A stretch of 64,000 nt of DNA from an uncultured Chloroflexia bacterium. GTDB taxonomy: Bacteria > Chloroflexota > Anaerolineae > CG2-30-64-16. Positions 20,721 through 64,000 of this stretch are shown here, one piece after another. A model generated the notes under the pieces. It saw only the letters and a list, made by a program, of their open reading frames with translations. It was not told the DNA's origin and searched no databases. Every line of letters begins with the position of its first letter. Position 1 is the first letter of the stretch. The stretch spans positions 818 to 64,817 of the forward strand of contig CAVOHP010000026.1 in assembly GCA_963695715.1 (NCBI GenBank), read 5' to 3'. Position numbers and translations under genes: made by a program.

Positions 20721-20737
20721 GAAGTTGACTTCTTGGA

Positions 20738-45046: not shown

Positions 45047-46520
45047 TCAGCGCCGGCGCATACTTTGCCGGACGCGCCTTGCCGATACTGCGACCGACTG
45101 GAACAAGATCTGAAGATCGAGCCAGGGGGTCCAGTTGCGGATATAGTACAAATCGAAGCTGCGCTCGTCTCCTGGCGACCAATAAGTCCAAACCGACCAG
45201 GGGCCGATCATCCCCGGCTTGAGGGTGCGCTGGTTGCGGGTGGCGCGTTCGTCGCGCGAGTCGGGGGTGGCGGGTTGGGCCCGTGGGCCGACGAGACTCA
45301 TTTGGCCGGCGACTACGTGAAAGATCTGCGGCGAGCGATCGAGTTCGGTCCGCTCGAGCCACCGACCGTGTATTGACAGCGACCCATCGGGGCGACGGGT
45401 GCGGAAACGGAGCATGCTCAGGACGGCGCCATCGGGGAGCAGGACCGGACTTCGACTGAAGACCGGAAGATGGCGATCTTCTAATTTGATGAACAACGCC
45501 AGTAAGCCCAAAAAGGGCAGCGTCAGCAGCAGCATCGGGACGCCCAGGCCATAATCGAGGGCTGCCTTGACGGCGGCGTCTGCGCCGACGAGCCGGGCAT
45601 CGTGAACCGTGAGCAGGGGCACGAACTGGCGGTTGGTGACGGCGACGCTGGTAGACATGATTTCATAGAATCCGGGAGAGAGCCGCATGGTGTAGTCGCC
45701 GTCGCAGTTGCCGTTGACGATGATCTCTTCGAAGGTTTCCCAGGCGATGGCGTTGGGCACGACGACCACTTCATCCACGTTGTATTGGCCGACGAGCTCA
45801 TGAAGGTTTCTGGGGCGGCCGAGGACTTTGACGCCTCCCCCGACATCCGTGCCGTAGGCTTTGAAATCGTCGAGAAAGCCGACGACCTCGATGCCTGACG
45901 AGGGGGAGCTGGTCCATTGATGCGCCATGGCGAGCCCCTGGTCGTTTGCGCCCACGAGCAAAACCCGGTTTGTGAGACGGCCGCGCCGGCGCAAGCCATA
46001 ACCGATGCGCCGGGATAGAAAGCGCTGGATTAGCAGGAAGGCAATGCTCAACGCCCAGGCCGTCATGAGCCAGCCCCGTGAAACGAGGGTAAACTGGTCG
46101 CGCCACAGGAATGAAAGCAAGACGATGGCAATGACGCCGCTCGTGCCGGCTTTGAAGAGCAGTTGATACTCTTTGATGCCCCCCAACAGATTGTCGCGAC
46201 TATAGAGTCCGAAGAAGGCAAAGAGCGCCAGCCAAATCGGTAAGCTGTAGAAGGAGAGCACGCGGTAGTCGCTTACGTTCTCCGGGCCATAATATTCGAG
46301 CAACCCGCTGGAGATGCGGAAGCTGTGGGCGAGCCAGAGGCTGAACAAGTATGGTGATGCTATCTATGACGACAAGGTAGGCGATGAAGGCGCGCCATTC
46401 GCGTTGAAGCTCCGGGCGTTCACCTTTGGCGAGCGTTGTCGCGCCGGCCTCCGCGCCCAGGGGCGCGCTGACCGGCAGGGTCGAGGGAATCAGCGATTTA
46501 TAGGGGCCATGACTGGCCAT
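45047..46520 (-). CDS. polytopic polyprenyl-phosphate glycosyl-1-phosphate transferase (WcaJ/WbaP/EpsB type), one frame change (about 46335)
   Basis: MASHGPYKSLIP...REWRAFIAYLVVIDSITI (ORF 46200..46520, GGAAAGGAG RBS) joins ORF 45047..46348 (TM region, VLLVGANDQG Rossmann-like middle, C-terminal sugar-transferase domain ...DLYYIRNWTPWLDLQILFQ). Confidence 0.8.
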
Positions 46521-47563
46521 AGGGGCAGCTCCTTTCCTGGCAGGGGCAGCCGCAGCCCGGCATTGAATAAGACTCGTGCGCCATCATATTCGAAAGAGTA
46601 TTCCATACGTCTGAAGTCCCCGGTTTCACGCAGGGCTGCTTCGACGCGGCCCGCCGCGCCATCTTCGCAGTACAGCATCAGGAAACCGCCGCCGCCGGCG
46701 CCTGTGAGTTTTCCGCCCAGTGCGCCGTTGGCCCGGGCGATGGCATAAAGATTGTCCACCTCGTCACTGCTGATGCCACGCGCGAAGCGTTTCTTGTGTT
46801 GCCAGGCCTCGTCGAGCAGCCCACCGAAACGATCGAGGTCGCCGCGCAGAAGGTAGATGCGCGCCTGAGTTGCCAGTTCCCGAACTGCACCTAACGCTTC
46901 GATCACGGCGGGGTCACGTGTTTCGCTGGACTTGCGCTGGCGCGACAAGATGTCCGCCGAATTGCGCGCGGAGCCGGTGAAGATCAGCACGAGATTGGAT
47001 TCCAGGCGTGCGATTGTCTCAGGAGGCAGATTCAGCGGTTCGGTGCGGATGCCGCGGCTGCTGAAAGAGTGCCAGTTGAAACCGCCCGTTGACGCCGCGT
47101 ATTGATCCTGGACCCCGATGGGCATCCCCAGCCGCTCAAGCTCGATTTCGCATGCGAGCGCGGCCAACTCGGCGCGGTCGAGGTGGCGACCACACGCAAC
47201 GGTGATGGCCTTGGCCAGCGCGACGGTGACGCTGGATGATGACCCCAGACCCGTGCCCGGCGGCACTTCCGAAGCGAGAAAGACGGAAATGCCATCCTCG
47301 ATGCCGAAGTGCTGGAAAACGGCGCGCGGTAGGCTGAGGTCGCCTTCCCAAAGGAGCGGTTGGCCGCGGGGATGCCGGTAGAATGTGCGGTAGTCGGAAG
47401 ATGTGATCTGCAGCGGGTGCCCTTGATTCACCGATAAGATGGCATAGACATACTTATCAATGGACGCACTGAGCACCGCTCCGCCGAATTCATTGTAGTA
47501 GGCGGGAAGATCGGTGCCGCCGCCAAAGAAGCTCACGCGCACAGGGGCGCGGGCGATTAACAT
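46490..47563 (-). CDS. hddA: D-glycero-alpha-D-manno-heptose 7-phosphate kinase (GHMP family)
   Basis: Intact 357-aa ORF with RAPVRVSFFGGGTDLPAYY, PPGTGLGSSSSVTVA and GKLTGAGGGGFLMLY (GHMP motifs I-III). Confidence 0.8.
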   Translation of the reverse strand: MLIARAPVRVSFFGGGTDLPAYYNEFGGAVLSASIDKYVYAILSVNQGHPLQITSSDYRTFYRHPRGQPLLWEGDLSLPRAVFQHFGIEDGISVFLASEVPPGTGLGSSSSVTVALAKAITVACGRHLDRAELAALACEIELERLGMPIGVQDQYAASTGGFNWHSFSSRGIRTEPLNLPPETIARLESNLVLIFTGSARNSADILSRQRKSSETRDPAVIEALGAVRELATQARIYLLRGDLDRFGGLLDEAWQHKKRFARGISSDEVDNLYAIARANGALGGKLTGAGGGGFLMLYCEDGAAGRVEAALRETGDFRRMEYSFEYDGARVLFNAGLRLPLPGKELPLWPVMAPINR

Positions 47564-48226
47564 TCAGTATGCGCCCTTTCCAAATAACACTGCCGGCAGG
47601 GTCAGAAGCAGGATTTTTATGTCTTGCCAGATATTGCGGGTGCGGATGTACTGGACATTCAGGAGCACGCGATCCGCATAGGGCAGATCGGCGCGTCCCG
47701 ATATTTGCCAGAGTCCGGTGATGCCGGGCCTGACGCTCAGGAGTTCATCGGCATGAGCGCCGAAGCGAACGAGTTCGGGCGGCGAAATCATCCGCGGGCC
47801 GACCATGCTCATCTCGCCGCGTAGCACGTTGCCGAGTTGCGGAAGCTCATCAATGCTGAAACGACGCAACCAATAGCCGACCCGCGTTATACGCGGATCG
47901 GTTTGCAGTTTGCCATCTTGTTGCAGTTGCTCCAGGAGGTCGGGCCGGGCAGCCAGGATCGCGTCGCCGTCTATCCGCATGGTGCGGAACTTGAAGGCGT
48001 CGAATTGGGTTCCGTTGAGACCCAACACACGACGCCGATAAAACACCGGCCCGGCGCTGTCGGTTTTGATGAAGAGCGCGACGAAGGGCAAAAAGGGTAT
48101 CAGGAACAGCAGGCTTAACCCCGAGACGACGATGTCGAGCGCGCGCTTCAGCCCGCGGTCAAAACCGCCGGCCGAGTTTGTCGTGTCTTGGGGCGATAGT
48201 CGATTATCTATCGACGCTTTCTCCAT
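47564..48226 (-). CDS. small monotopic phosphoglycosyl transferase (PglC/WbaP-C-terminal type sugar transferase)
   Basis: Internal Met (48226) of ORF 47564..48487: MEKASIDN...KRALDIVVSGLSLLFLIPFLPFVALFIKTDSAGPVFYRRRVLGLNGTQFDAFKFRTM...DELPQLGNVLRGEMSMVGPR...GITGLWQISGR. Confidence 0.8.
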   Translation of the reverse strand: MEKASIDNRLSPQDTTNSAGGFDRGLKRALDIVVSGLSLLFLIPFLPFVALFIKTDSAGPVFYRRRVLGLNGTQFDAFKFRTMRIDGDAILAARPDLLEQLQQDGKLQTDPRITRVGYWLRRFSIDELPQLGNVLRGEMSMVGPRMISPPELVRFGAHADELLSVRPGITGLWQISGRADLPYADRVLLNVQYIRTRNIWQDIKILLLTLPAVLFGKGAY

Positions 48227-49421
48227 AAATCCCTTCGATACGGGCGGCAATGGCGTCCCACTCGTGATGCGCTTCGACGTACTCTCGGCCTGCCTGCCCG
48301 ATGCGCCTGGCAAGCTCCGGATTCGAGAGCAGATGGACGATCTGCTCAGCGGCCTGGGCGGCGTCATCGAAGATGAGGAGCTGCTCACCCTCGATTGCCG
48401 AAAAGGCCGCCGTGGCGCGCCGCGCGGCGACCACCGGCGTGGCGCAAGCCATGGCTTCGAGAATCTTGTTCTGATTCCCCGCGCCATACACGATGGGCGC
48501 GACGCTCACGGCTGCATGTTGTACATATGAGCGGATATCCGGCACACTCCCCGTGATGGTGACGCGCTCCGGGTATGGCGCTGCTGCTTTGTAAAGCGCG
48601 GGGTCAGGATCTTTCCCCACGATCCACAGGTGGGTATCAGGACGTTTGTACCATACCTGCGGCATGATTGACGAGAGTAAGTGTAGTGCTGCGGTGATAT
48701 TTGCATGATAACTCATTTTGCCGGAAAACACCAGCGCGGAAGGATCACGCGTTTCGATGCCCGGTGTGAAATAGGCGAGGTCTACGCCGTTCGGGACGAC
48801 TTCGACGATTGGGGCGAGCGATGATGCGCGCGACGTGGCGGGTAAAGCCAGCAGGGCTTGCCGATCAATCGCAGATGTGATCAGGGTGCGATCCACACGG
48901 TCGCGCACCAGGGCTTCGAAACGTCTGGTGCGCTCCAGATCAAGACCGGTCAGCAAGCGCCAGCGCGGATTGCTGCTGTTTTTCGCCGCTTGCGCGAACA
49001 GATAGGAGATACAGTCCACGCTGTCCCAGATGACCGGAACCGGGCAGCCGGCCGCTTTGAGCTGCAAGGCATAGCGCGCGCCGCGCAGATGCTCAACGTG
49101 CACGACATCAAATTGGTTGGCGGCCGCGGCTGCGGCCAGATCATCGGCCAACGAAGGGAGCCACGAATAGGCGGCTTGTAACGACATGCCGGACGGCAGC
49201 GCAGCCAGCGCATTCCACATCGGTCGCCAACGGGGGGCGCGCCAGGCCCTTACCTGCGCGCCCAGCGACGCCAGGCGGTCGGCGTCCTGACGCTCGTCCT
49301 CTCCGGTGTATTGCGTGAACACGGTTACCGCATGCCCGCGGTGGAGCAACGCCCGGATGATATTGTAGGGTCGGGCGCGGATCAGATTCGGCACGTAGGG
49401 CACGACAAAGGCGATCCGCAT
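48204..49421 (-). CDS. glycosyltransferase family 4 (GT-B)
   Basis: Intact 405-aa ORF with a C-terminal ...GAGNQNKILEAMACATPVVA EX7E-type region. Confidence 0.8.
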   Translation of the reverse strand: MRIAFVVPYVPNLIRARPYNIIRALLHRGHAVTVFTQYTGEDERQDADRLASLGAQVRAWRAPRWRPMWNALAALPSGMSLQAAYSWLPSLADDLAAAAAANQFDVVHVEHLRGARYALQLKAAGCPVPVIWDSVDCISYLFAQAAKNSSNPRWRLLTGLDLERTRRFEALVRDRVDRTLITSAIDRQALLALPATSRASSLAPIVEVVPNGVDLAYFTPGIETRDPSALVFSGKMSYHANITAALHLLSSIMPQVWYKRPDTHLWIVGKDPDPALYKAAAPYPERVTITGSVPDIRSYVQHAAVSVAPIVYGAGNQNKILEAMACATPVVAARRATAAFSAIEGEQLLIFDDAAQAAEQIVHLLSNPELARRIGQAGREYVEAHHEWDAIAARIEGIYGESVDR

Positions 49422-49473
49422 GGGTTATCGGCTCCCGCGTTCCGTCATGCACGGTTCCCTGAGCGGAAGGAAT

Positions 49474-50859
49474 TCATTGACTCTCGCGATCCATGATGCG
49501 GACCATGGCGATGACCCCGCCGAGGAAAAGCCAACCCAGGTAGGATGATTTGAAGCCCACAAGCCCGACATTGTAGACGAAGGGCAATACCCAATCTCCG
49601 AATATCCCGGCGATCACCATGGCGGCCAATCCTCCGAGGCTGCCATAAATATAGCCGCGCGCAAACCCTTCGGGCGCTCGCGTCCCGGCGAGCCAGCTAA
49701 ACCAACCCATCGAAATCAGAAACCACAGATAGGCCAGAAGCCCCAGGATGCCGGCCTGCGCGACCATGTCTACATATTGATTATGCGAGTTGAACTGAAG
49801 GCCGTAATAGCCCGAGATCGGAAAGAGCGGCGTGTACCAGTAATAATTGGCGGGGCCGAGACCGAGGATCGGGTTTGCTTTGATGATTTCGACCAAGATT
49901 TGCCATGCCTGTACACGGGTGGTGTAGCTGTAGGCATCACCGGACAGGAGATTCTGAAGCGCCTGCGGGGCGAGCAACAGCGCGCCGGCGAGGATCAGAA
50001 GGAAGGTCCAGCGCGAGCGGAGGACGAGGATCACGAGGATACCGGCCAGCGCGGGCAGCCAGCCCGAAACCCAACCGGGCACGCTGACATACACGGCGTA
50101 CACCGCAATTGCGGCCAGTCCAGCGAGGCTGAGCCGCAAAATCGGATGGAGCCGGCGATTGAAAACGGCCTGGCCCAACGCAAGCGCCGGCAACCAGGAG
50201 AAACACTGGCTGCTGATCGAGCCGGGTTCGTAGAGCTGTAGCAGGTAGGGCTTCAAGGGGGGGATCAGAACACCGACGGCGAAAATCGAACCCAGGATGA
50301 GAAAGACGCTGACCAGGGCGATCAATCCGCGCTCGGTTTGCATCTGTTCGGCGGTGACGAAGAAGACGGCGACGGACACGAGCACGAGCGCCAGGCCGCC
50401 AAGTTGTGCGGTCAAGGGCGCCCGTCCTGCCAGGGGCATCCAGTTGCCCTGACCGACGAACAGGGCGACGATAAAGATGCCGGACAGCACCAGAAGGGCG
50501 ATTTGCGGTCTGGTCAGATGCGATGGTCTGCGACTCGGATCGGCAACGATGGTCGCGATCCATAACAGGGTGATGCCGATTGCCCACAGGAACGTGGCGC
50601 TGATTTCCGTGCGCGTGCCGGTGCCGATGCTGAATGGCACGAAGAAGGTGATCGGGATCAGCAGGATGGGACCGAGAGCAGGCCACCGAAGCAGCAGGAG
50701 AGCCACCATGCCCAGGCCCATGACGCCCAGGCCGACCAGGGGAAGCGTGGTAGAACCGCTGAGCGCAACCAGCGCGGCGATCAGCAGCACGGCGAGCGAG
50801 ATCGTGACGGTCGTCAGACGCAATGAAAGGGGCGAGGCGGTCGGCATACGTCGGATCAT
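49474..50859 (-). CDS. O-antigen ligase/polymerase-family (Wzy-like) polytopic membrane protein
   Basis: Intact 461-aa ORF with at least 10 hydrophobic segments and a large loop containing ...GLGPANYYWYTPLFPISGYYGLQFNSHNQYVDMVAQAGILG, typical of Wzy_C proteins. Confidence 0.7.
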   Translation of the reverse strand: MIRRMPTASPLSLRLTTVTISLAVLLIAALVALSGSTTLPLVGLGVMGLGMVALLLLRWPALGPILLIPITFFVPFSIGTGTRTEISATFLWAIGITLLWIATIVADPSRRPSHLTRPQIALLVLSGIFIVALFVGQGNWMPLAGRAPLTAQLGGLALVLVSVAVFFVTAEQMQTERGLIALVSVFLILGSIFAVGVLIPPLKPYLLQLYEPGSISSQCFSWLPALALGQAVFNRRLHPILRLSLAGLAAIAVYAVYVSVPGWVSGWLPALAGILVILVLRSRWTFLLILAGALLLAPQALQNLLSGDAYSYTTRVQAWQILVEIIKANPILGLGPANYYWYTPLFPISGYYGLQFNSHNQYVDMVAQAGILGLLAYLWFLISMGWFSWLAGTRAPEGFARGYIYGSLGGLAAMVIAGIFGDWVLPFVYNVGLVGFKSSYLGWLFLGGVIAMVRIMDRESQ

Positions 50860-52091
50860 CGGCGTAACTCCACGGCGGGATGAGGGTTCGCATCGAGCTG
50901 TCTGACCGGGTATCGATGCTCTTGCGTTGATATGACGGCTTCAACAGGGTCAGGAATTGTGGCGCGATGACCTCCCAATCATAGCGCTGTGCGACCAGGC
51001 GCCCGGCTTCCCCGGTGAGCGATTGCCGGAGGGCAGGATCGCGCAGCAGCCGAACGGCGGCATCGGCGAACTCGACCGGGTCGTCGGCAATCAGCAGATG
51101 CCGGCCGGGTTGCGGCATCGAGACCCTCCGCGCCCTTCGTCGTCGCGATGACCGGAACGCCCAGGGCCATCGCTTCCAGGATTTTCAGGCGTGTGCCGCC
51201 GCCCTGGCGCATGGGCACCACGGCTGCCCACGAGCCGGCGATCAGCGGGCGCACGTCGGGCACAAAACCGGTTCGCGTGATATCGGGCGCAGGCGGCAGC
51301 GGCAGGTCGGCGTGATTGCCGGTGATCGTGAGTCTGGCGGCGGGATACTGGTCCTTGATACGCCCGTAGACTTCACCGACAAACCAGGATGCTGCATCGT
51401 AGTTGGCATGATAGGTGAACGCACCGGTGAAAATGAGGCTCCCCGGTTCGGGCCGGGCGGATATTCCGATGTAGTCGGGGAGATGCACGCCGTTCGGTAT
51501 GACCTCGACGGCGTGGAAATCAGGCGCAAGTGTTGCGCACCAGGTCACGCTCTTGTTGCGATGCGACGGTGGCCGCGGCGTACTGTTCGAGCAGGCGATT
51601 GAGATATCGGCTGTGTTTGGCCCACGTCAGGCCATAGCGCAGCCGGTGGGCGACATCGCTTGCCCCTGCGTATTGGCCGTGCATCAGGCCGAGTTCGATC
51701 TCCTCGAAAAGCGCCGGGTAACCCGCGAAGCAGGGAGCATATACGGCCGTGTCAAACTGGGAAGCGATGACGGCGTCATACGGCGTCTGTCCCAACTCGC
51801 GCTCGATCAGGGAAGCGAATTCGTCAGACCACGTTTCGATGACGGATCGCGGGCGGGGATTGAGCAAGGCCAGACGCGCGCTCATGCGGTTGGGGATGAA
51901 TGGCTTGCGACGCACGACGTGTACGTCGCGGCAAATCGCCCGCAGACCGGCGGCGTCAATCGGCTCGTCCGGTTCGGCAAAGCTGATCAGCGTGACCTCA
52001 TGTTGTGTGGCGAGAATGCGTAGCAAATTGTAGACGCGCAACTTCGAGCCATTGGTCGGCGGGTGGGGAAACCAGCGCGAGAGAAAGAGCA
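50856..52091 (-). CDS. glycosyltransferase family 4 (second copy), about 3 frame changes
   Basis: MSRLLFLSRWFPHPPTNGSKLRVYNLLRILA (ORF 51520..52413, internal Met) joins ORF 50979..51548 (GGTRLKILEAMALGVPVIATTKGAEGL), then the frame of 49937..51118 (LLIADDPVEFADAAVRLLRDPALR). The last residues, ...QLDANPHPAVELRR-stop, end in an ATGA overlap with the Wzy-like start. Confidence 0.7.
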
Positions 52092-52097
52092 GTCGGC

Positions 52098-53006
52098 TCA
52101 TGTCGGGCGCATTCCCCAGCGGCCGCGCAGGAAATCCACCGTGCCTTGCCACAGGGCATCCCGATGCGCGCGCATGTGACGCCAGCGAGGTTTGATTGTC
52201 CAGCTTGTGAGCGTACGTATGGTTTGAAACCAGGCTCCGGCCCAGGCTGCGGGCGGGGCATGATGAAGCGACATCATCAAGAAGTGATTCCGGGTATTGT
52301 AGTAGGTGACGGATGGGCCGGGCTGATAGTTGCGCTGAACGCCTTTGTGCCAGAGGCGCGCCCCGGGTTCCAGCACGATCTTCCAGCCGTGGCGAGTCGC
52401 CCGGACGCACCACTCGGTTTCTTCAAAGTAGTAGAAAAAGCGTTCATCGAGCGCGCCGAACTCGCGAATGGCGGCGGCGCGCGCCAGGAGGGCGCAACCG
52501 GAAAGCGCAGGCGTCTCGTGCGCCAGGGCAAACTGACCGCAATCGGGTTCATTCTTCCCGAGATGCCGGGAATCCCAGGCGCGGTTCAGCGTGACGCCGG
52601 CAGACTGGATGATCTCCGGTTCATCGTAGTGGAGCACCAATGGGCCGACAAACGCGATGCGCGGGTCGCTCTCGCCGGCGGCAACCAGACGCTCGATGCA
52701 TTCGGGAGCCAATACGGTGTCTTCGTTAAGCACCAGCACCCAGTCGGCGCCCTCTTGCAGCGCCGCAGCGATGCCGACGTTGTTATTTCCGGCGTAGCCT
52801 TTGTTCTCTTCGATGGCGATGATGCGAACATCAGGGTGGGCGGCCCGGATGGCTTCAACAGAGCCATCGGTCGAGGCGTTGTCCAGCACGATCGTCGAGA
52901 AATTCCGATAGGTGTTGCGCTCGAGTGACGCAAGACAGGCCAGGGTGTCCTCACGCCGGTTGGTATTGAGGATCACGACCGTGACACGCGGGTTCATTCC
53001 AGCCAT
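52098..53006 (-). CDS. glycosyltransferase family 2
   Basis: Intact 302-aa ORF with VTVVILNTNRREDTLACLASL, VLDNASTDGS and LVLNEDTV (DxD-type). Confidence 0.85.
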   Translation of the reverse strand: MAGMNPRVTVVILNTNRREDTLACLASLERNTYRNFSTIVLDNASTDGSVEAIRAAHPDVRIIAIEENKGYAGNNNVGIAAALQEGADWVLVLNEDTVLAPECIERLVAAGESDPRIAFVGPLVLHYDEPEIIQSAGVTLNRAWDSRHLGKNEPDCGQFALAHETPALSGCALLARAAAIREFGALDERFFYYFEETEWCVRATRHGWKIVLEPGARLWHKGVQRNYQPGPSVTYYNTRNHFLMMSLHHAPPAAWAGAWFQTIRTLTSWTIKPRWRHMRAHRDALWQGTVDFLRGRWGMRPT

Positions 53007-53990
53007 GCCGGAGGCAAATTACGCATGATCTCGATGTCCTCGAAGCGGCGACCGGTGCGCGCGCCATACGTGCGCACCCATTGCGCCATGCGCTGCAACC
53101 CTTCCTCCAATGAATAACGCGGCTTGACGCCGAAGACATTGCTGAGCTTGGCGTGCGAGGAATATGCGTCCTGCACTTCGTTGCGCGCCGGCAGGTGGGT
53201 GATCTTGCGGCGCAACGCCCATCGCGCCGGCCACGGCTTCGGCCAGGGCGTTCACGCTGTATGCCTGGTCGGCCCCGATGTTGAAGACCTGATTATAGGC
53301 GGCGGGCGTCTCGGCGGCGGCGGCGATGATGGGCGCGACATCGCCGATGTAGCTGAAGGCGCGCGTCTGTGTACCGTCGCCGAACACCGTCATCGGGTGA
53401 CCTTGCAGGATCTGATTCATGAAGATGCCCACGACGTTGCGATAGCGGTCGCCGATGTTCTGGCGTTCACCGTAGACGTTGTGGGGACGGAATATGACAT
53501 AGTCCAGGCCAAACATGCGCCGGCTGGCCTCCAACTCCTGTTCGACGGCGAGCTTGGCAATGCCGTAAGGGTCTTCGGGGTGTGGCGGCGTTTCCTCGGT
53601 CATGGGCAGTTGCGGACTGGCGCCGTAGACGGCGATCGAGGAGGTGAAGATGAAGCCCCGCGTACCGTGATTGATGGCGGCGTTGATGAGGTTGACGCTG
53701 CCCATCAGGTTGTTCTGATAGTTGAATCGTTTGATGAAGTGGCTCAGGCCCTCGGCAGCGTATGCGGCCAGGTGGTAGACATAATCAAAATGATATTCAT
53801 CGAACAGGCTTTCGATCAGCGACACGTCGTTGATATTGCCCGTGACGAGACGCGCGTCGCCGGGTACGTTGTCCGCAAATCCGCCGCTCAGGTCATCGAG
53901 GACGACCACCCGATGGTCGCGGGCCAACAGCTCTTCGGCTACGTGCGACCCGATGAATCCTGCCCCACCCGTCACCAATGTCGTCGGCAT
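52994..53990 (-). CDS. NAD-dependent sugar-nucleotide epimerase/dehydratase, one frame change (about 53215)
   Basis: MPTTLVTGGAGFIGSHV, YGIAKLAVE (YxxxK) in ORF 53019..54005. The tail RRKITHLPARNEVQDAYSSHAKL...RNLPPAWLE is in ORF 52994..53215. Confidence 0.8.
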
Positions 53991-53997
53991 GTTGTCC

Positions 53998-55108
53998 TCA
54001 CCCAAAGATATAACGATAGTAACGGTTGGCCGGTGTTCGGCTTACCAACCACATCAGGCCGAGCGGGACGGCCAATCCGACGGCGATCAGGAGCGGCTGT
54101 AAGATGATCTGGTGGCCGAGCAGGGCCGGTACAAAGTGATACAGGGCGCGGGCGAAATACTCCATGCCGATCATATGAATCAGGTAGATGCCATAGGTGC
54201 GCCCGCCCAGCCATTCGACGGAACGGGCGAACGGCAGCGCAGTCTGGCTTACGGCGAGAATCGCAAGGATGAATGCGGCGGAGTAGAGGACATCTACGAA
54301 GGTTTCGCGATGGGCCAACCATTCCGATGACCGCCGGGCCATCCACTCCCATTCGATCATGCCGACCGGTATGAGGACAAGCGCTGCGCCGATCAGCCAG
54401 ACTCTGGATTTGTCGAGAAATCCCTTGAGGGCGGGAAGATGGAAGCCGGCGACGATACCGCTCGAAAATGCGAAGATCCGTGTGATGAAGAGCCATTTCG
54501 GAACCAATTGCCCCAGGGCAATCAGTTGCGGGTTCTGCGCGCCAAGCAGAAGCGGATAGTAAGAGAGCATGACGGCGAGCTGGATCAGCCCTGTGACCAC
54601 GAGCAGCGTGACGGGCTTTTTGCGGGCGATGGGAATCAGGAACGGCGCCAGCAGATAGAGTTGGATCAGCAGCGGGACGTAGTAATACGCCGGACTGATG
54701 CTGCCGGTGAGATACATCTGTACGAAGCCGATTGGCCCGGGGCGACGGCCTTGCACGAAGGCGAGGGCAAACAGCACGAGCGTCCACAGGGTGTAGGGGA
54801 TGAGCAGGCTCTTGATGCGCGGCGAAGACGGAACTCCATGCCACGGTGCGTTGGGCGCGGCCGGTTGCGAAGGCCACGAAGAAGCCCGATATGAACATGA
54901 AGGCGGGAATCGCGAAGACGCTGATTTGCTCCTCGGCGCGCAGGAGCCAGTAGGACAGGCTGCCCGTCGGATCGGCGCTCGCGAGGTTGGCTGCGTCTGT
55001 ATAGCGATGCGCCCACGCGAACATGGCGACGAACCCCAGGCCGGCGGCATGGAAGATGATGACGGCGAAGATGGCGAGTCCGCTCAGATAAAGTAATCGT
55101 CGAACCAT
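53998..55108 (-). CDS. acyltransferase-3 (AT3) family membrane O-acyltransferase, copy A, one frame change (about 54850)
   Basis: MVRRLLYLSGLAIFAVIIFHAAG...FMFISGFFVAF (ORF 53972..55108) joins RIKSLLIPYTLW...YGIYLIHMIG...RYYRYIFG (ORF 53998..55050). Confidence 0.8.
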
Positions 55109-55449: not shown

Positions 55450-56626
55450 TTAGCCGAAGAGATAACGATAATAGCGCCGGAACGGCGAATGGTCTACCAG
55501 CCACATCAGCCCCAGCGGGGTGATCAAGGCGGCGGCAAACAACAGCGGCTGCAACAAAAGCTGGTGCGGCAGCAGGCCCGGCAGCAGGCGACTGATGGCT
55601 TTTGCCGCCAGGATGATGCCCAGCGTGTGGACGAGGTAAATCCCGAAGGAGCGCACGCCCAACTTCTGCAGCGCATCGGCCACGCGGGGCGCCAGCGCGC
55701 CGCCGCCGAGAAAGGCGAGGATGATCGCCCCGGAAAAGAGTTCATCGGTAAGGGTGCGAAACTGACCGGCCCATGGGGTCGGCGTCGCGCGGACCACAGC
55801 TTCCCATTCTACCATGCCGGCGATTAACAGGACAGGTATGGCGATCAAGGCGATGCGATGCACCCGGTCTATCCAGGCGCGGAAGGGCGCGACATGGGTC
55901 CCTGCCACGATGCCGGTCGCAAACCACAAACACAGACCGGGGAAGAACCATGCCGGGGTCAGCCATGCCAGCGCGGACGTCAGTGCGCCGGTAGGGGCCA
56001 GTTCTTTGAGATAGATCGCGAACATTGCCGTCAGTTGCAGGATCAGCGCCGCGATCAGCAACCACTTCCAGCGCCGTTGCGCCAGTAAGACCATAAACGG
56101 CGCCAGCAAGTAGTATTGGATGAGGAGCGGTATGTAATAGAATCCCGCAGCGGCGCCGCCGAAGGCAATCCGGCGCGCGTAGGAGATCGGCGCGTAGACC
56201 GACCCCAGCGCCGCATCCAGGCCGAGATAGAATGCAGACCATAGCAGATATGGGATCACCAACATCTTGATCCGGCTGCCGACGATGCTCCAGACGCCGG
56301 CGTTGGACGCCGTCTGCGCCGTCAGCCCCAGACGCTGCCGACGAGCGCGCCGTTTGTTGTTTCGGCGCGTGGACGGCGCGGCTCAGGGCGAAGGCTGCAA
56401 AGTAGCCCGACACGAAGAGAAATGCCGGCACCGCGAAGGCGGCAAGGCCCTCGCCGGTGCGTAATAGCCAGTAATCGAAGCTGCCCACGGCGTCGAAGTT
56501 CGGCGCGGCGACGGCGCGATATCGGTCCGCCCACCAGATGAGGGCAATGAACCCCCATCCTACGGTGTGGTTGAGCACGACGCCGAGGATCGCCAGTCCG
56601 TTGAGCAGCAGCAGGCGTCGAACCAT
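55450..56626 (-). CDS. acyltransferase-3 (AT3) family membrane O-acyltransferase, copy B (paralogue of copy A), at least 1 frame change (about 56350)
   Basis: MVRRLLLLNGLAILGVVLNHTVG...FLFVSGYFAAF (ORF 55742..56626) joins SRIKMLVIPYLLW...FGIYLVHTLG...RYYRYLFG (ORF 55450..56265). Confidence 0.8.
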
Positions 56627-56635: not shown

Positions 56636-57902
56636 TCAGTCAATCGGGACTGTTGACAATTGGCTCTTGAAGATGTGGTTGTCGGAGGCTTCCACGGCCT
56701 TGATATAATTGCGCATGGCGTCCAACACCGGTACATCCTTTCGATCGAACACGATTCCCTGGAGCAACTCCTTGATTTGCGTATTGTACTCTTCAGATTG
56801 AACGAAATGCGTGAAGAGGGGCAACAGCTTATAGTAGAGCCGGATGAACTCATACCAGACGCTGACACCGGACCGAATCTTCTCCTCGTACGGGCTGAAC
56901 GTTGCAGCCGAGAAGTCTGCCTGTCTGGAAGGCACAGCGAATGCTGTCCTGTAGCGAACCGGGCGCTCATCATCGCAACACTGACGCCCGAAGAGAAGAT
57001 CGGATCTACGAAGCGCGCGGCGTCGCCGACCAGCATCCAGCCGTCGCCCACGAAGTGTCTGCATCTTGTAGCTGTAGTCGCCCTCGGTCTTGAACTCGTT
57101 GATGCGCTCGGCGGGCGCAAGTGCGCGGGCCAGGGCCGGATTCGATCCAATATAGGTGTTGAAGTATCCTTCCACATCTTTGCGCGCCTGTCGGAACACC
57201 TCGCGCTCGGCGACGATGCCCACCGATGTGATCTCGTCGGTGATCGGGATCTGCCATGCCCAGCCCCGGTCTACGGGGAGGAAGTGGATGTGGATATAGT
57301 CGGCGGTTTCGCTATCACCGCGATCCAAGCCTCTTGTACCAGGCATGTACTGCGTACTGGTCGAAGATGGGATCATTATCCTTGATCGTGAGCTGGCGGC
57401 CAAGCAGTGTGTGCCGACCACTGCAATCTACGACGATCTTGGCGTGCAAGTCGAACTCGGCTTCGGCCACCTGGGCACGGACGCCTACGGCCTGGCTGCC
57501 ATCGAACAATACCTGCTTGACACGCACGCCCTGGTATACCTTGGAGCCGAGCTTTTCGGCATGCTTCGTCAAGAGGTGATCGAACTTGCTGCGGTCAACA
57601 TGGTAGATATAGTCGCGATCTATGCCGTGCTTGGGGAATGCGCTGAAGGGGATGGCGAACTCTTTGCCGCTGAAGGCGTGCCAGGCTGCGCCATACTTCC
57701 GAACGAACCCCATTTCTTCCATGGTGTCGAGGAAGCCGATTTCCTTGAACGGAATGTAGGTGGACGTCACGAGGGATTCGCCGACATGAGGGCGTGGATG
57801 ATTGGCCTGCTCCAGGATGACGTTGTCTATGCCGGCCAGAGAGAGATAACTGCCCAGGGTAGCGCCGGCCGGCCCGCTGCCGATGATGATCACATCGCTC
57901 AT
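56636..57902 (-). CDS. FAD-dependent halogenase-like oxidoreductase (GxGxxG plus WxWxIP), 3 frame changes
   Basis: MSDVIIIGSGPAGATLG, PRPHVGESLV (ORF 57315..57902); DRGWAWQIPI (ORF 56636..57421); HFVGDGWMLVGDAARFVDPIFSSGV (frame of 56560..57177); then back to the 56636..57421 frame to the stop. Shifts at about 57335, 57060 and 56940. Confidence 0.7.
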
Positions 57903-58031: not shown

Positions 58032-59608
58032 TCATGATTTTGATTGATCGGCGAGCGTGCGGCGGTCAATCTTGCCGGTGGATGTGCGCGGGAACTCCGC
58101 GACGATCGCGATGCGCGCCGGGATGGCATACCAGGGCAGGCGGCCGCCCAGATGCTCGGCCAGGTCGTCGGCCGTGGGCGCCGCGCCGTCTTTGGCGGTC
58201 ACGGCCGCGTAGATCAGATTGGCGCCTTCTCCTTCCTGGTCGGGCATTGCGTAGACGGCTGCTTCCTGAACTCCTTCGTGGCTCAATAGCGCGACCTCGA
58301 TTTCGTCCAGCTCGACGCGATAACCGCGTGTTTTGATCTGGCGGTCCTGGCGCCCCAGGAATTTGAGGTTGCCGTCCGGCATCTCCAGCACCAGGTCGCC
58401 CGTGCGATAGTAAGGCTCGGTATAGCCGGGGTGGAACGCCTGATGAAAGAAGCCGCGCTCGGTCAGCTCGGGGCGGCCCCAGTAGCCGCGCATGACGATC
58501 GGGCCGCGAATCAGCAACTCGCCCGGCGAACCGGGGGCGACCGGCTGATTTTCGGAGTCCACGATCAGCGCGTCGGCGTTGGCGCAGGCGACGCCGATGG
58601 AGATCGGTTCGTCGGTGTCATCGGGCACGGCGTTCACATGATAGTATGTGCAGACGTTGGTCTCCGTTGGGCCGTAGAGGTTGCTGAAACGGACGTGCGG
58701 CAGGGCGGCCATCAATTGGCGCAAGTACTTGGTCGGGAATACTTCGCCCGCGAAGAGCAGCCAGCGCAAGTCCGTCAGGTCGCGCGTTCCGATGTTGCCG
58801 CGCAGGAGCATCTGCGTCAGGGCGAACGGCACGGAATACCAGACGCTGATGCGCTCATCCTGCATCAGTTTGGAGACGCTGGCGGGGAAACGCGTCACGG
58901 CCTCGGGGATGATGACGGTCGTCGCCCCGGCCAGGGCGCCCGCGAACAGATCGAAGGTGGACAGGTCGAAGTGCAGCGGCGCATGATTGCTGAGGCGATC
59001 TATCGAGCGCAGGCTGTACTCATCGGCGGCCCAGCGCGCGAAGGCCAGGGCGCTGCGATGCGTGTGCATGATCCCTTTGGGGTCGCCGGTCGAGCCGGAC
59101 GTGTAGAGGATGTAGGCCAGGTCTTGCTCGATTGTGCGCGTTTCGGGCAGGGCGGCGGGCGCTGCAGCGACATCGGCCCAACTTGCCGTGCGCACAGGCC
59201 AGGCTATCCTGCGCCGATACGCCGATGATTTGCGCCAGGTCCGGGGCCAATGTCGAGCATCTGGCGGAGTTGCTCGGCCTTGTCATCCCGGCTGATGAGG
59301 CAGCGTATGCCGCAGTCACGGATGACGAACGCAAGGCGCGCCACGGGCGCGAACGGGTCGAGCGGCACGTAGGCCGCACCGGCCAGCATGATGCCATATA
59401 AGGCGATGACCGATTCCAGGCTCTTGTTCATGTAGATGCCGACCCGGTCGCCGCGGGCAACGCCATTCTCGGCCAGGAAGCGGGCCAGTTGCGCGGCGCG
59501 CTCGGCCAGGGCTGCGTAGGTCAGACCGACGCCTGCGAAGCGGATGGCCTCGTGGTCTGGTGAGCGTCCGGCGGCTTCGGTGATCGCGTGCGAAAGCAGA
59601 TAGATCAT
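58032..59608 (-). CDS. stand-alone NRPS-type adenylation enzyme (DltA-like amino acid--carrier protein ligase), 2 frame changes (about 59235 and 59195)
   Basis: ORF 59204..59608 (LTYAALAERAAQLA), then ORF 58032..59195 with core motifs LAYILYTSGSTGDPKG, HFDLSTFDLF, NLYGPTETN, GELLIRGPIVMRGYWG, YRTGDL, GRQDRQIKTRGYRVELDEIE, LPWYAIP, TGKIDRR. Confidence 0.85.
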
Positions 59609-59690: not shown

Positions 59691-60980
59691 TCACAATACC
59701 GATTCCTCGGCGCCGGGCGATGCGGACACCAGTTGCAAGGATTGCCCCGGGAGCAGCCACCTGATCATGGGAGCAGACAGTAATGAAGTGGCGATGGCCA
59801 TGATCACCACCGTAACAAATATCCGCTCGTCAATGATGGCATAGGCTAGACCAATGCCGGCCAGGATGATTCCCGTCGCGCCGCGAGCGTTCAGCCCAAA
59901 TGCGATCGCCCATACCTCGCGGTGAGCGGCATGCCGGCGAGCCGTGCACCCAAGATGACCCCTCCGACCTTGCTGATACATGCAACGACAAATACCACCA
60001 GCACCTGGGCCAGGTCAAAATTCACGGCGAAGTTGACCGTGAGACCCATGGAGACGAAATAGATTGGGGCAAAGAAGCTCAGCGCAAAATGGGAGATCAC
60101 GTCGTGTGCTTCGTTCGTCTCGCCGTTGTGCCCGCCTAATGCGATGCCAACCAGGAAGGCGCCCAGGAAAGCATGCACTGCCCAGGACTTCCGCGAAATG
60201 CTTCCCACGACCAGGATGAGCAGCGTTGTCAGAGCGATGAAGCCGCTCGGCCAGGGCAAGCGTTGTCTGGCAAAATGCAGGGCGCGCGGCCCCAAACACG
60301 CGCCCAGCCACCAGGACTATGACGACGAACAGGACGATTACCCCGAGGCCCAGTGAGAGGCTGGACACGGTCGTGTCTACAGGAGACACCTGACGCAGGA
60401 TCATCGCAAATAGGGTCCAGTTGATCAAGTCATCGAAGATGGTAGCCGTCATGACGACCGTCGCCGATGTGCTCCTTGAGCAGACCGAGATCCATCAGGA
60501 TTCGAGCAATCACGGGTTGGCGGAGTTCGCCAGGTTCAGCCCCAGAAACAGCGCGAAGGCAAAGAACTGTCCCTGGACACCCGGCCCCCAGAACGTGCTG
60601 GGCATCAGCGTAGGCCAGGCCCAGGCCGGCAACAATCGGAATGATTGTTCCGACCAGGCCGATGGAAGTGGCCTGCGGACCGAGCCGGCGGATATCGGAT
60701 TGAGATCCACCTCAAGGCCGGCGATGAAGAGAAAGAACATCATCCCGAGCTTGATCGTCAGCATCGCGCACGACAGTGACGTTGGCGGATGAGTGAAACA
60801 GCCAGTTATACGAAGCAGGCGCCAGCGCGCCGAAGATCGTTGGCCCAGGATAATGCCGCCAATCATCTCGCCTAGTACGGCCGGTTGTCCGAGCTTGCGC
60901 ATGATCTGCCCGCACATCAGACGCCACGCCAGCATCGCAGCGATCTGGAGAGCGAACAACACGAAGTCGTGGGAACTCAC
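59691..60980 (-). pseudogene. cation:proton antiporter (CPA2/Kef-NapA type), at least 8 frame changes; genuine decay or a local assembly problem
   Basis: Fragments appear in all three frames in the order expected for one protein. They are LGQPAVLGEMIGGIILG, PTIFGALAPASYNWLF, LTIKLGMMFFLFIAGLEVDLN, RRLGPQATSIGLVGTIIPIVAGLGLAY, FFAFALFLGLNLANSA, PVIARILMDLGLLKEHIG, TATIFDDLINWTLFAMIL, VHAFLGAFLVGIALG, FFAPIYFVSMGL and AIAFGLNARGATGIILAGIGL. Confidence 0.6.
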
Positions 60981-61026: not shown

Positions 61027-62172
61027 CTAAAGTCCTAACAGGCGAGCAATGATGTTGCGCTGGATATCGGAGGTGCCCGAGTAGAGCGTGCCGCCGATGG
61101 CGTCGCGCAAATCGCGCTCCACCTCGAACTCGGTCATATAACCGTAGCCGCCATGAATGCGGATGGCGTCGAGGCTGGACTGGACGAAGGCTTCGCTGAT
61201 GTAGAGCTTGGCCAGGGCTGCGTCCATCGGCGCAGGCTTTTCCAGCTTCTTTTGCCACGCGACCCGGTAGAGGATGAGACGGGCCGTTTCGAGGCGCACC
61301 TTCATGTCCGCAATGCGGTTGGCGACCGATTGGAACTTGCCGATCGGTTGGCCGAACTGTTCGCGCTCGCGTGCGTATTGGATGCATTCCTCCAGTTGCC
61401 GCTCCATCGCGCCGACGTGACTACCCAGGATGCACGCCCGCTCCCACTCCATCGAGTGATTGAAGATGCGCGTGCCGATGCCTTCCGCGCCGAGGCGATT
61501 CTCTTCGGGGACCAGGCAATCTTCGAGGATCACTTCGCCCATCGGGGCGGTGCGCAACCCCATTTTGTGCAGGTCGCGGCTGACGGTCAGGCCGGGGGTG
61601 TCGCGTTCGACGATGAACCCGGTGACGCCCCACATGCCCTTGCCGGGGTCTACCGTGGCGAAGATGATCGCCAGATCCGCCACGGGCGCGTTGGTCACGA
61701 ACATCTTGCTGCCGTTCAGGACATAGCCGCCGTCGCGGCGCTCGGCGCGCGTGTGCAGGCTATAGGCGTCTGAGCCGGAGTCGGGTTCGGACATACCGTG
61801 CATTCCTATCAGATCGCCGTTGCAGAGGCCGGGCAGGTATTTGCGCTTCTGCGCCTCGGACCCGAAGGCGAGGATCGGCATCTGGACGCTCCAGAGTTGG
61901 GCGTTCATCGCGAAGATGAGGCCGTTGTCCCGGCTACCGTAACCCAGACCCTCCATGGTGAGCATGGTGGTGAGGATGTCTTCCCCGGCGCCGCCATACG
62001 CTTCAGGGATGGGCAAGCCGAGGATGCCGAAGCGGGCGCACTTACGCCAGTTCTCCAGCGAGAACGCGCCTTCCTGGTCGCGTTCGATCAGCCCTTCATT
62101 CAGCTCTTTGCGGGCAAACTCAATGACGGCTTTCTTGTATGCGAGTTGTTCGTCTGTCCAGGAGAAATCCAT
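61027..62172 (-). CDS. acyl-CoA dehydrogenase-family flavoprotein
   Basis: Intact 381-aa ORF with MDFSWTDEQLAYKKAVIEFA, GMSEPDSGSD, FVTNAP and a C-terminal ...YSGTSDIQRNIIARLLGL. Confidence 0.85.
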   Translation of the reverse strand: MDFSWTDEQLAYKKAVIEFARKELNEGLIERDQEGAFSLENWRKCARFGILGLPIPEAYGGAGEDILTTMLTMEGLGYGSRDNGLIFAMNAQLWSVQMPILAFGSEAQKRKYLPGLCNGDLIGMHGMSEPDSGSDAYSLHTRAERRDGGYVLNGSKMFVTNAPVADLAIIFATVDPGKGMWGVTGFIVERDTPGLTVSRDLHKMGLRTAPMGEVILEDCLVPEENRLGAEGIGTRIFNHSMEWERACILGSHVGAMERQLEECIQYAREREQFGQPIGKFQSVANRIADMKVRLETARLILYRVAWQKKLEKPAPMDAALAKLYISEAFVQSSLDAIRIHGGYGYMTEFEVERDLRDAIGGTLYSGTSDIQRNIIARLLGL

Positions 62173-62274: not shown

Positions 62275-63464
62275 CTACCTTGCCCTGAACCACGGGGCAG
62301 CCGTGGTGTCCGTCATGAAGAAGCTCATGAGCATATCTGCGACTTTGCGCGCGCCGGCGGGCGACGGATGGGTGCAGTCTTGCTCCATATCCGGCCCCTT
62401 CCAGGTTTGCCCGTCTGCCCTGGGGTTTTCGCCGTCAATCCAGAGATACGGCCCCCAGGTGATGTAGGGCGCACGCACTGCGCCCAGCTTCGGGTCGAAG
62501 TTGAGCGCCGGGTCATTCCGAAGCTGTCTTTCGATTAACCACTTAACGGCGAAGCCGGTTTCGTAGGCAATCGGTTCGGGACTCAGCCCGCGGAAGTAGG
62601 TATAGGAGCGCGTCCGGCTGGAGAAGTAGATCATCTTCAGGTTGGGGAACTCGGCCAGCAGGTTGTGCGTGATGTCTTCCAGCGCTTTTTCCAACTCTTC
62701 GGCTTTCTGCGGGGAACGTCCCGGCCGCGGGTCAGGGTTTGCTTGACCCAGGCGACCTGGACCTGTTCCGGTGTGACTTTGCGGTGTTTCAGGCGGGCGA
62801 GCAACTCCGGCCAGGGTCGCCCGTTCGGATCGGCCCATTTTTCGGCGGTCTGGCCGGCGAGCGCGCCGTTGATGATCACGAGGTTCGGATTCAGGTCCTT
62901 GCGTTCTTTGGCCATTCGCTCGAACTGACCGAACTCGATGGATGTGTTGGACATGCCCACGGAGATGAAGACGACCTTGCCGTTGGGATCGGGTCGGCCC
63001 TGGGCGTCGAGCGGCTGAATCTGCTTCGCGGCGGCCAGCCCGGCGGCTTCGTGGGCGGGGGGTCGCACGTTGGACCCACCCGGATAGAGGCCGCCCGTGA
63101 AGCCGGTGGGGCCGCCTTCCATGCGGACGTATTCGGATTTGCCCAGCTCGGTCAACGGCCTGGCGACGGGCTTGAAAGGTTCGGCGCACGTCGCGCTCTT
63201 GTCGCGTGTCGGTTGAGGGGGTCGTGTCGGGCGCGGGGGTGGGGTGGGGCGAGCGACCCGCGTCGGTTGGGTCTGAACCGCACGCTGCGCGAGCCGCGTG
63301 GGGGTCGCCTTGTATCCCATCGTCGCGCCGTTAACGTCACGCGCGCTGACCAGAACGGACGAAAGCCCGGTGATGGTAAGCGTGACGAGGATCACGACGA
63401 TCATCATGAGCGGCGTCCGTTGGCGTCGCGGCTTGGAAGTATTGCCCTTCATGTTCTTATCCAT
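62275..63464 (-). CDS. signal-anchored SGNH-like hydrolase/acyltransferase-fold protein, one frame change (about 62700)
   Basis: ORF 62637..63464 has an N-terminal TM (PLMMIVVILVTLTITGLSSVLV), a Pro-rich linker, and VVFISVGMSNT as a candidate block I Ser. ORF 62275..63189 has DCTHPSPAG as a candidate block V DxxH. Confidence 0.5.
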
Positions 63465-63493
63465 CTATTTCTGGTCAAGAAACCAGCTTTTCG

Positions 63494-64000
63494 TCAGGAG
63501 TCTGTGACGTGGAATGCCATCAGCATATCTGCCACGGCGTCAATGCCCAGGGGCGACGGGTGGGTGCAATCCTGGGGTGAGATTCGCACCGGTCCACGAC
63601 CAACCGTCGGCACGCGGGTTCTGGCCGTCAATCCACAAATAGGGTCCCCACGAAAGGTAGGGGGCCGCGACGGGGCCGACTGTCTCATCGTAGTTCAGCG
63701 CCGGGTCACCATTGATTTGCTGTTCGATCAACCACTTGACGGCGAAGCCCGTTTCGTACGCAGATGGTTCGGGACTCAGGCCGCGATAGATGTTGTATGA
63801 ACGCGTGCGGCTGGACAGGAAGACGATCTTGAGATTCGGGAAGCGCGCGTGCAGCAGGTGGATGATGGTCGTGAGGTCGCCCTGGAGTTGAAGCGCCTGG
63901 TCGGGGAACGCGCCGCCCGTAGCGTAGGTCAGCTTGATCCAGACGACCTGAACCTGTGCGTTTGTAAGATGCCTCCTGCTCAACTCCGTATCCAGCGTCG
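63494..64000 (-). CDS. paralogue of the SGNH-like protein (5' end beyond the window), one frame change (about 63600)
   Basis: ORF 63540..63983 (FPNLKIVFLSSRTRSYNIYRGLSPEPSAYETGFAVKWLIEQQ) plus ORF 63494..63688 (QDCTHPSPLGIDAVADMLMAFHVTDS). It is colinear with 62275-62750 at the protein level and partly at the DNA level. Confidence 0.5.

Follow-up and report, generated by a model that had tools for sequence, protein, structure and literature searches.

A stretch of 64,000 nucleotides (nt) from contig CAVOHP010000026.1 of an uncultured Chloroflexia bacterium (hereafter the window, meaning this whole stretch) contains, at 56636-57902 on the minus strand, a gene for a flavin-dependent halogenase. 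In this study, we followed up an earlier note on this gene that was made from the DNA letters. The encoded protein is almost certainly a FADH2-dependent halogenase of the PltA/Mpy16 type that acts on a carrier-tethered substrate. On balance, we favour the reading that it belongs to a Dlt-like pathway in which (chloro)pyrrole-2-carbonyl groups would be placed on a polysaccharide, and that the breaks in its reading frame are artefactual. The coordinates of the features are collected in Table 1.

The earlier note had recognised a halogenase from four peptides and from the motif pair GxGxxG and WxWxIP, and had seen a resemblance to the carrier-dependent subgroup (PltA, CndH). All four peptides were found on the minus strand of this region, far beyond chance, and both motifs hold across the family. 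GxGxxG is G8-S-G10-P-A-G13; among 39 family members, G8 and G10 do not vary, and G13 is at least 90% conserved. WxWxIP is W214-A-W216-Q-I-P219, and W214, W216, Q217, I218 and P219 are invariant in the same 39 members. The tunnel motif F297-V-D-P300-I-F-S303-S-G305, for which the spacing F-x-x-P-x-x-S-x-G was taken, and GDAARFVDPIFSSG are likewise invariant. The catalytic lysine is K69, within RKYGAAW; it falls opposite the second lysine of KKFGAAW when aligned to PltA and Mpy16, is present in all 39 sequences, and is the residue that we take to be equivalent to K73 of PltA. The GxGxxG, WxWxIP and Fx.Px.Sx.G motifs of flavin-dependent halogenases have been described (PMC8407142).

Profile and structure comparisons of the repaired protein agreed with this. 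It scored 84.5 bits against Pfam PF04820 Trp_halogenase (cutoff 21), where the N-terminal fragment by itself scored 47.5 bits, and 76 bits against FAD_binding_3. A phmmer search of the Protein Data Bank (PDB) returned Mpy16 (E 4e-119), ChlB4 (9e-116) and PltA (3e-114), then FasV, Bmp2, CndH and CmlS, so that the resemblance to the carrier-dependent subgroup held among the closest solved relatives. Mpy16, ChlB4 and PltA align over residues 3-417, with the C-terminal helical region included. An AlphaFold (AF2) model built from a 39-sequence alignment had a mean pLDDT (predicted local distance difference test) of 90.1 and a pTM (predicted template-modelling score) of 0.91. Its best fold matches were carrier-dependent halogenases, and it superposed on ChlB4, PltA and Mpy16 with template-modelling (TM) scores of 0.91-0.92. 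In a large database of 5.8 billion proteins, 3923 matched the halogenase at E<=1e-30, the best being 81% identical and 420 amino acids (aa) long; the best match in a one-genome-per-species scan was 68% identical. The post-lysine loop has 18-19 residues in this 420-aa family, compared with 32-33 in the halogenase-adjacent actinomycete homologues scanned.

A related flavoprotein that is not a halogenase, resembling a geranylgeranyl reductase or an aromatic monooxygenase, would also match FAD_binding_3, and GG-red-SF, QhpG and LodB were indeed among the NCBIfam matches. The best NCBIfam model was CmlS (NF033113, 170.9 bits against a cutoff of 900), and no equivalog was reached. However, GG-red-SF (TIGR02032) scored 139.7 bits, under its cutoff of 158.8. 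Digeranylgeranyl reductase 3oz2 matched with an E value of 1.5e-16, compared with 1e-119 for a halogenase, and ranked 42nd by fold with a TM score of 0.69 against 0.91. WxWxIP and the catalytic lysine are both present and invariant, and we consider such a flavoprotein very improbable.

The best-matching solved halogenases all work on carrier-tethered substrates, and for ChlB4, an equally close relative, 6-methylsalicylic acid is the postulated substrate (PMC8407142). A pyrrolyl-S-carrier as the putative substrate of the window enzyme is drawn from the neighbouring genes. At the positions used to convert Bmp2, the window halogenase has S304, V308 and W348, which is the Mpy16 state; the Bmp2 changes Y302S, F306V and A345W shift that enzyme towards Mpy16-like limited halogenation (PMC5577590). 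These residues suggest, more weakly, that one or two halogens may be added.

As read, the halogenase gene does not have an uninterrupted reading frame. It starts at the ATG at 57902, with a GGAGG Shine-Dalgarno sequence 9 nt upstream, and stops at a TGA at 56636-56638. The frame breaks were placed by aligning the gene to four intact homologues (L004, L005, L001 and L003, encoding P0001-P0004); a coarse phase plot of G+C at third codon positions did not resolve them. In the DNA alignment, the window gene differed in length from these homologues by four single-base insertions and by nothing else. Their removal shortens the gene from 1267 nt to 1263 nt, that is, 420 codons and a stop, and 420 aa is the modal length of the family. 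On the minus strand, IIIGSGPAGATLG and PRPHVGESLVTST lie in the frame opened by the ATG, RGWAWQIPI in a second frame and GDAARFVDPIFSSGV in a third. The earlier note had counted three frame changes. The fourth was overlooked because only 9-10 codons, reading DSIRCAFQTG in the third frame, separate the last two insertions.

We consider it likely that the four breaks are sequencing or assembly insertions and that the gene is intact in the organism. All eight indels in the locus that could be polarised against at least two intact references are +1 insertions in the window (four in the halogenase, two in the adenylating enzyme and one in each of two acyltransferase-3 (AT3) genes), and no deletion was among them. 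Decay of bacterial pseudogenes is generally deletion-biased, and the all-insertion pattern therefore favours an artefact. Once repaired, the gene reads through 420 codons without an in-frame stop and retains all invariant residues of the family. Measured against the nearest allele, its ratio of nonsynonymous to synonymous substitution rates (dN/dS) is 0.084 at a saturated dS, and the window branch carries 18-23 unique changes compared with 31-32 in that allele. As judged from these substitutions, this shows that the repaired halogenase is under purifying selection and that the window branch is not accelerated.

Alternatively, the insertions could be real and the halogenase recently dead, in which case the locus would add unhalogenated pyrrole-2-carbonyl or nothing. 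The density of breaks, four in 1.27 kb, is above the roughly 1.3 per kb averaged locally, whereas the dehydrogenase, the carrier, one GT4 (GT4b) and Bac_transf are free of breaks over about 3.3 kb. No homopolymer run in the gene is longer than 4, and none is lengthened by any of the four insertions, which thus differ from the classic homopolymer error. In addition, the halogenase open reading frame (ORF) alone is strongly diverged from those of the closest relatives (about 72% nucleotide identity against about 90% around it), so the gene turns over between strains. These points count against an artefact. On the other hand, the absence of stops, the retained residues and the low dN/dS on an unaccelerated branch are not what a dead gene would be expected to show, and the uniform insertions run against the deletion bias. 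Frame breaks also occur elsewhere in the locus, in epimerase/GT2, GT4, the Na+/H+ exchanger and an SGNH-like gene as well as in the adenylating enzyme and both AT3s, and in at least seven unrelated genes of the window. The latter were recognised by Pfam domains that are split between reading frames, which gives a lower bound. Breaks across so many unrelated genes point to a window-wide cause, and a true pseudogene appears rather unlikely.

The relative L003 has single-base gaps of its own at L003:8299-9871 compared with the window and L001, and its adenylating-enzyme gene was called as pieces of 117 and 376 aa. Therefore, L003 is not an error-free reference.

According to the earlier note, the halogenase acts on the neighbouring carrier-bound substrate. 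This is supported by the adjacent genes for a carrier, a PltF-like adenylating enzyme and a prolyl-carrier-protein dehydrogenase. The adenylating enzyme scored 394 bits against the amino-acid adenylation domain TIGR01733 (cutoff 317), matched PltF in the PDB (6o6e, E 1e-96), and stayed under the cutoffs of the DltA models with 264-267 bits. Its pocket columns read DLFYLALV. Of 38 adenylating enzymes encoded beside halogenases, 31 have DLFYLALV or DLLYLALV, among them the enzymes of Frankia, Streptomyces, Catenulispora and Actinomadura. This code comes from an empirical comparison of columns among halogenase-adjacent adenylation domains; a numbering after GrsA was tried and not used.

The dehydrogenase matched the prolyl-acyl-carrier-protein dehydrogenase AnaB (4irn, E 2e-142, 478 bits) and the L-prolyl-peptidyl-carrier-protein dehydrogenase 5zw0 (E 1e-96, 327 bits). 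Its best NCBIfam models, PigA (NF053553, 453.9 bits, cutoff 500) and RedW (NF045652, 421.5 bits, cutoff 650), were both below the equivalog cutoffs, and it is 96% identical to its orthologues in the two closest relatives, L001 (an NCBI metagenome-assembled genome, MAG) and L003 (an ENA contig). The carrier protein matched peptidyl carrier proteins in the PDB (E 9e-11) and PltL more weakly (6e-5), and is 98% identical to the PP-binding genes of L001 and L003. Scans of 72 coding segments of the window gave no Flavin_Reduct domain, in line with the earlier note, which had seen no flavin reductase.

In the mechanism that we propose, the adenylating enzyme would very probably load L-proline on the 81-aa carrier, and the dehydrogenase homologue would probably turn prolyl-S-carrier into pyrrole-2-carbonyl-S-carrier. 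Homology does not settle the extent of this oxidation, AnaB being closer than the L-prolyl-peptidyl-carrier-protein dehydrogenase; full oxidation to pyrrole is argued here because a flavin halogenase needs an electron-rich ring. The halogenase would take FADH2 from a reductase encoded elsewhere, O2 and chloride, and hypohalous acid would arise at the flavin. WxWxIP would hold the substrate off the flavin, and K69 would pass the halogen to the pyrrole ring. The loading, oxidation and halogenation steps have strong homology and the characterised Plt, Mpy and Bmp systems behind them.

Two membrane proteins of the AT3 family flank the carrier gene, AT3a on the halogenase side and AT3b beyond. Their intact orthologues in L001 and L003 scored 81.8 and 97.7 bits against PF01757 (cutoff 31), and the window copies scored 107.6 bits combined. 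The R-X10-H motif is called absolutely conserved in AT3 proteins, and its arginine has been modelled to bind the 3'-phosphate of coenzyme A (CoA) (eLife 2023, PMC9833829). In this study, we found that the first transmembrane helix instead has N9-X10-H20 in AT3a and S9-X10-H20 in AT3b. Among 29 cassette AT3 sequences (L001-L051), at least 90% have asparagine in place of the arginine, and the histidine is kept. We compared these sequences with E. coli WecH and OpgC and with Oac of phage Sf6. R-X10-H is present in WecH and Sf6 Oac, which were aligned alongside the cassette AT3s, and also in OpgC, where it was read from the sequence since the alignment was off in that region. The cassette AT3s keep an FFxISG-like motif and apparently one arginine only of RXXR. 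A sequence search for a solved AT3 structure found none. Carrier-bound phosphopantetheine has no 3'-phosphate, and the loss of the arginine modelled to bind that of CoA thus fits a carrier donor.

Upstream, next to the window end, lie two paralogous SGNH-like proteins. The corresponding pair in L001 is at L001:4885-7128. At least 1409 proteins belong to this family at E<=1e-5, and the 120 best were listed without a Pfam domain; against Pfam Lipase_GDSL, the proteins reached an E value of only 0.11. The motifs G155-x-S157-N158 (GMSN) and D347-C-T-H350 (DCTH), which correspond to the block I serine and the block V DxxH, are invariant in the family. An AF2 model of one member (pLDDT 87.8) adopts an SGNH fold and has a membrane helix at its N terminus. 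Foldseek matched this model to PatB, which O-acetylates peptidoglycan, to platelet-activating factor acetylhydrolase, to GDSL lipases and to the SGNH domain that the lipopolysaccharide acetyltransferase OafB has in the periplasm, with E values of 4e-5 to 4e-4 and target-normalised TM scores of 0.45-0.66.

Every gene from 43.5 kb to the window end is on the minus strand. In the order of transcription, these are the two SGNH-like genes, the dehydrogenase, the Na+/H+ exchanger, the adenylating enzyme, the halogenase, AT3a, the carrier and AT3b, followed by the polysaccharide genes. L001 and L003 have the same order of two SGNH-like genes, dehydrogenase, adenylating enzyme, halogenase, AT3, carrier, AT3, epimerase/GT2, GT4 and Wzy. 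We annotated 84 loci, 80 of them from the one-genome-per-species scan and the rest close relatives. An AT3 gene lies directly beside the halogenase in at least 16 of the 84, most of which have carrier, adenylating-enzyme, dehydrogenase and glycosyltransferase genes nearby. Nearly all AT3-adjacent loci are titled as MAGs of Anaerolineae, Anaerolineales, Bellilinea, Ardenticatenaceae or Chloroflexota. SGNH-like genes also occur often alongside halogenase, carrier, adenylating enzyme and dehydrogenase where AT3 was not detected nearby (L047, L048, L056, L059, L061 and L062).

From this gene order, the lack of another off-loading enzyme and the loss of the AT3 motif, a further step may be drawn, to which we give about even weight. 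The AT3 pair and the two SGNH-like proteins would carry the (halo)pyrrole-2-carbonyl group over the membrane and attach it as an ester to the polysaccharide that the downstream glycosyltransferase, Wzy and Bac_transf genes produce. Extended to the hosts as a group, the proposal is more tentative and falls somewhat short of even: Anaerolineae-type Chloroflexota may put chlorinated pyrrole-2-carbonyl esters on a Wzy-dependent surface polysaccharide via carrier-fed AT3s.

A less likely but serious alternative is that these genes are mere neighbours, the halopyrrolyl-S-carrier being released or passed to an enzyme encoded elsewhere for a small molecule and the AT3s O-acetylating the glycan from acetyl-CoA. 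The characterised PltA-type halogenases all feed small-molecule pathways (PMC8407142), and characterised AT3 donors are all acyl-CoAs. However, Pfam scans of the window gave no match to a condensation, ketosynthase or thioesterase domain, and the gene listings for the loci of its closest relatives, L001 and L003, contain none either. The carrier gene sits between the AT3s, and at least 16 loci retain the order of the genes. This AT3 subfamily has lost the very arginine modelled to bind the CoA 3'-phosphate. Finally, in Acidimicrobiia, the SGNH-like partners accompany halogenase-carrier-adenylating enzyme-dehydrogenase sets without AT3.

Several observations weigh against polysaccharide acylation by a carrier-fed pathway, and some of them speak for the mere-neighbour alternative. 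The AT3 pair could merely acetylate the glycan, since shared location need not mean shared chemistry. Members of the 420-aa halogenase family are also present in Acidimicrobiia, Verrucomicrobiota, Acidobacteriota, Gemmatimonadales, Planctomycetota and Myxococcota, and among the 84 annotated loci, AT3 was not detected near the halogenase in those non-Chloroflexota phyla. A 2802-aa ORF adjoins the set in L061 (Promineifilaceae), and thus the halogenase family is not bound to one fate. The top solved match of the adenylating enzyme is a linear gramicidin synthase module, ahead of PltF. The link of the DLFYLALV-type code to proline, as the code of stand-alone prolyl-AMP ligases, depends in part on published codes. 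AnaB, the closest solved relative of the dehydrogenase, halts at two-electron oxidation, which gives dehydroproline and not pyrrole. Our literature searches returned no halogenated or pyrrole-acylated polysaccharide and no halogenase or pyrrole-2-carbonyl group in a polysaccharide or AT3 context. In a 2022 review of AT3 proteins, the demonstrated donors are acyl-CoAs, and acyl carrier protein is a candidate only.

The polysaccharide pathway that we favour shares its first part with known systems. The sets of PltA/PltF/PltL/PltE (pyoluteorin), Mpy16, Bmp1-4, HrmQ and Clz5 have the same four parts, namely an adenylating enzyme, a carrier, a dehydrogenase-family oxidase and a halogenase. The window halogenase shares 44-46% of its residues with PltA and Mpy16 over the full length, with the same motifs and C-terminal helical region, and where Mpy16 and the tetrabrominating Bmp2 differ at distinguishing residues, it follows Mpy16. 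Unlike the Plt-type sets, it has the short post-lysine loop and a length of 420 aa, no polyketide synthase, nonribosomal peptide synthetase or thioesterase partner in the window, and AT3, SGNH-like and polysaccharide neighbours, and its hosts are mostly uncultured Chloroflexota. The start of anatoxin-a synthesis by AnaB/AnaC/AnaD has the same proline-on-carrier logic and includes the best solved match of the dehydrogenase, but the anatoxin set has no halogenase.

The second part resembles DltABCD, in which an adenylating enzyme, a carrier, a polytopic membrane acyltransferase and an extracytoplasmic SGNH-like protein lead to a surface polymer. DltD is SGNH-like. In contrast to Dlt, the membrane protein here is an AT3 (PF01757), and scans of the window gave no match to MBOAT (DltB-type), AT3 standing in that place. 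In addition, the acyl group would be oxidised and halogenated on the carrier, and the acceptor is presumably a Wzy-dependent polysaccharide. We propose that the cassette would work like Dlt without being a Dlt system proper. AT3 and SGNH are also paired on extracytoplasmic glycans in OafA/OafB, OatA, and WecH with PatB, and the cassette AT3s share with them the histidine in the first transmembrane helix and the FFxISG-like motif. However, AT3 and SGNH are separate genes here, with two copies of each, and the arginine of R-X10-H and one of RXXR are gone. In comparison with the AT3-SGNH O-acetyltransferases, the proposed donor is a carrier protein and not acetyl-CoA, and the acyl group is aromatic.

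The halogenase itself is of a known kind. What is new is its fixed association, within a polysaccharide locus, with SGNH-like genes and with AT3 genes whose products have lost the CoA-binding arginine. The earlier note had not seen this link of the carrier pathway to AT3 and SGNH-like acyltransferases, and no description of the association was found in the searchable literature. PltA-type flavin halogenases are known only from small-molecule antibiotic pathways, and here one lies within surface polysaccharide machinery in at least 16 loci. If the proposed pathway is true, halogenated aromatic esters would join bacterial glycan chemistry, and to our knowledge, neither a halogenated bacterial glycan nor an AT3 system fed by a carrier protein would have a precedent. 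The system would be a test case for the carrier-donor question in the AT3 literature, with the missing CoA-3'-phosphate arginine (N-X10-H) as its sequence signature. It would also extend the Dlt principle to a second membrane acyltransferase superfamily and give a function to a large SGNH-like family without annotation. Even on a conservative reading, these proteins form a distinct short-loop 420-aa clade of carrier-dependent halogenases that is widespread in uncultured phyla.

The halogenase gene differs in its history from the genes around it. Nucleotide identity of the window to L001 and L003 is about 0.9 on either flank but only about 0.72 over precisely the halogenase ORF (56640-57900), where L001 and L003 are about 0.85 identical to each other. 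At the amino-acid level, the window halogenase is 83% identical to P0001, compared with 76-77% to the alleles of its syntenic relatives L001 and L003, and it groups with P0001/L004 and not with these two. Because identity falls just over this ORF and the allele groups with P0001, the gene appears to have been swapped as a unit between lineages, which looks like a gene-precise allele replacement.

Table 1. Positions of the halogenase gene, its frame breaks, the neighbouring genes and other frame-disrupted genes in the window
Feature	Position	Strand	Basis or remark
Flavin-dependent halogenase gene, PltA/Mpy16/ChlB4 type	56636-57902	minus	420 aa once four single-base insertions are removed
Frame break 1	57329-57333	minus	extra base in TACAAGAGGCTTGG (WYK / GLDRG); exact site ambiguous within 5 bases
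Frame break 2	57058	minus	extra base in ATGCAGACACTTCGTG (YKMQ / HFVGDGW)
Frame break 3	56944	minus	extra base in GCTACAGGACAGCATT (SARFAT / DSIRC)
Frame break 4	56918	minus	extra base in ACAGGCAGACTTCTC (AFQTG / DFSAAT)
Stand-alone adenylation enzyme, PltF-like, probably L-proline-specific	58032-59608	minus	Pfam AMP-binding; two single-base insertions at ~59248 and ~59203
Carrier protein, 81 aa	55172-55414	minus	DSL phosphopantetheine-attachment motif; translation and PDB matches
Acyl-CoA-dehydrogenase-family gene, intact, 381 aa, most like prolyl-carrier-protein dehydrogenases	61027-62172	minus	PDB and NCBIfam
AT3 membrane protein a	55450-56626	minus	one single-base insertion at ~56332; starts 9 nt past the halogenase stop
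AT3 membrane protein b	53998-55108	minus	one single-base insertion at ~54820
Membrane-anchored SGNH-like protein, L001 hyp387 orthologue	62278-63464	minus	no Pfam family; one frame break near 62720; tblastn
Second, paralogous SGNH-like protein, C-terminal half, L001 hyp355 orthologue	63468-64000	minus	continues past the window end
Na+/H+-exchanger-family membrane protein	59754-60980	minus	at least 4 reading-frame pieces; between dehydrogenase and adenylating enzyme
Polysaccharide assembly genes, same orientation, downstream	43529-54005	minus	Pfam; synteny with L003
Epimerase	53019-54005	minus	Pfam
GT2	52101-53018	minus	Pfam
GT4	50860-52101	minus	Pfam
Wzy_C polymerase/ligase	49477-50940	minus	Pfam
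GT4	48204-49421	minus	Pfam
Bac_transf	47564-48226	minus	Pfam
GHMP kinase	46493-47563	minus	Pfam
CoA_binding_3+Bac_transf	45050-46363	minus	Pfam
SIS+nucleotidyl transferase	43529-44950	minus	Pfam
GFO/IDH/MocA oxidoreductase	2330-3202		domain halves in different frames
Zinc alcohol dehydrogenase	5535-6630		domain halves in different frames
Alpha-L-fucosidase	6735-8329		domain halves in different frames
ABC solute-binding protein	11423-13097		domain halves in different frames
Epimerase	19654-20945		domain halves in different frames
Aldo-keto reductase	~31069-31608		domain halves in different frames
Amine oxidase	36325-37957		domain halves in different frames

A gene of the Na+/H+-exchanger family is also found near the cassette in L003, L014, L018, L019, L023, L025, L026, L031 and L032, and the window copy is just 26% identical to that of L003. 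Supply of ions or of halide is one possibility for its role.

Other genes of the window were observed in passing. Upstream of the sugar genes, 38936-39658 encodes a ParA/AAA_31-type P-loop protein, possibly a chain-length regulator resembling BY-kinases, and 40857-43013 encodes a 719-aa protein rich in proline, threonine and alanine with PD40/DPPIV beta-propeller repeats at its end. A predicted protein at 27233-27988 has an unbroken run of 12 prolines between two domains.

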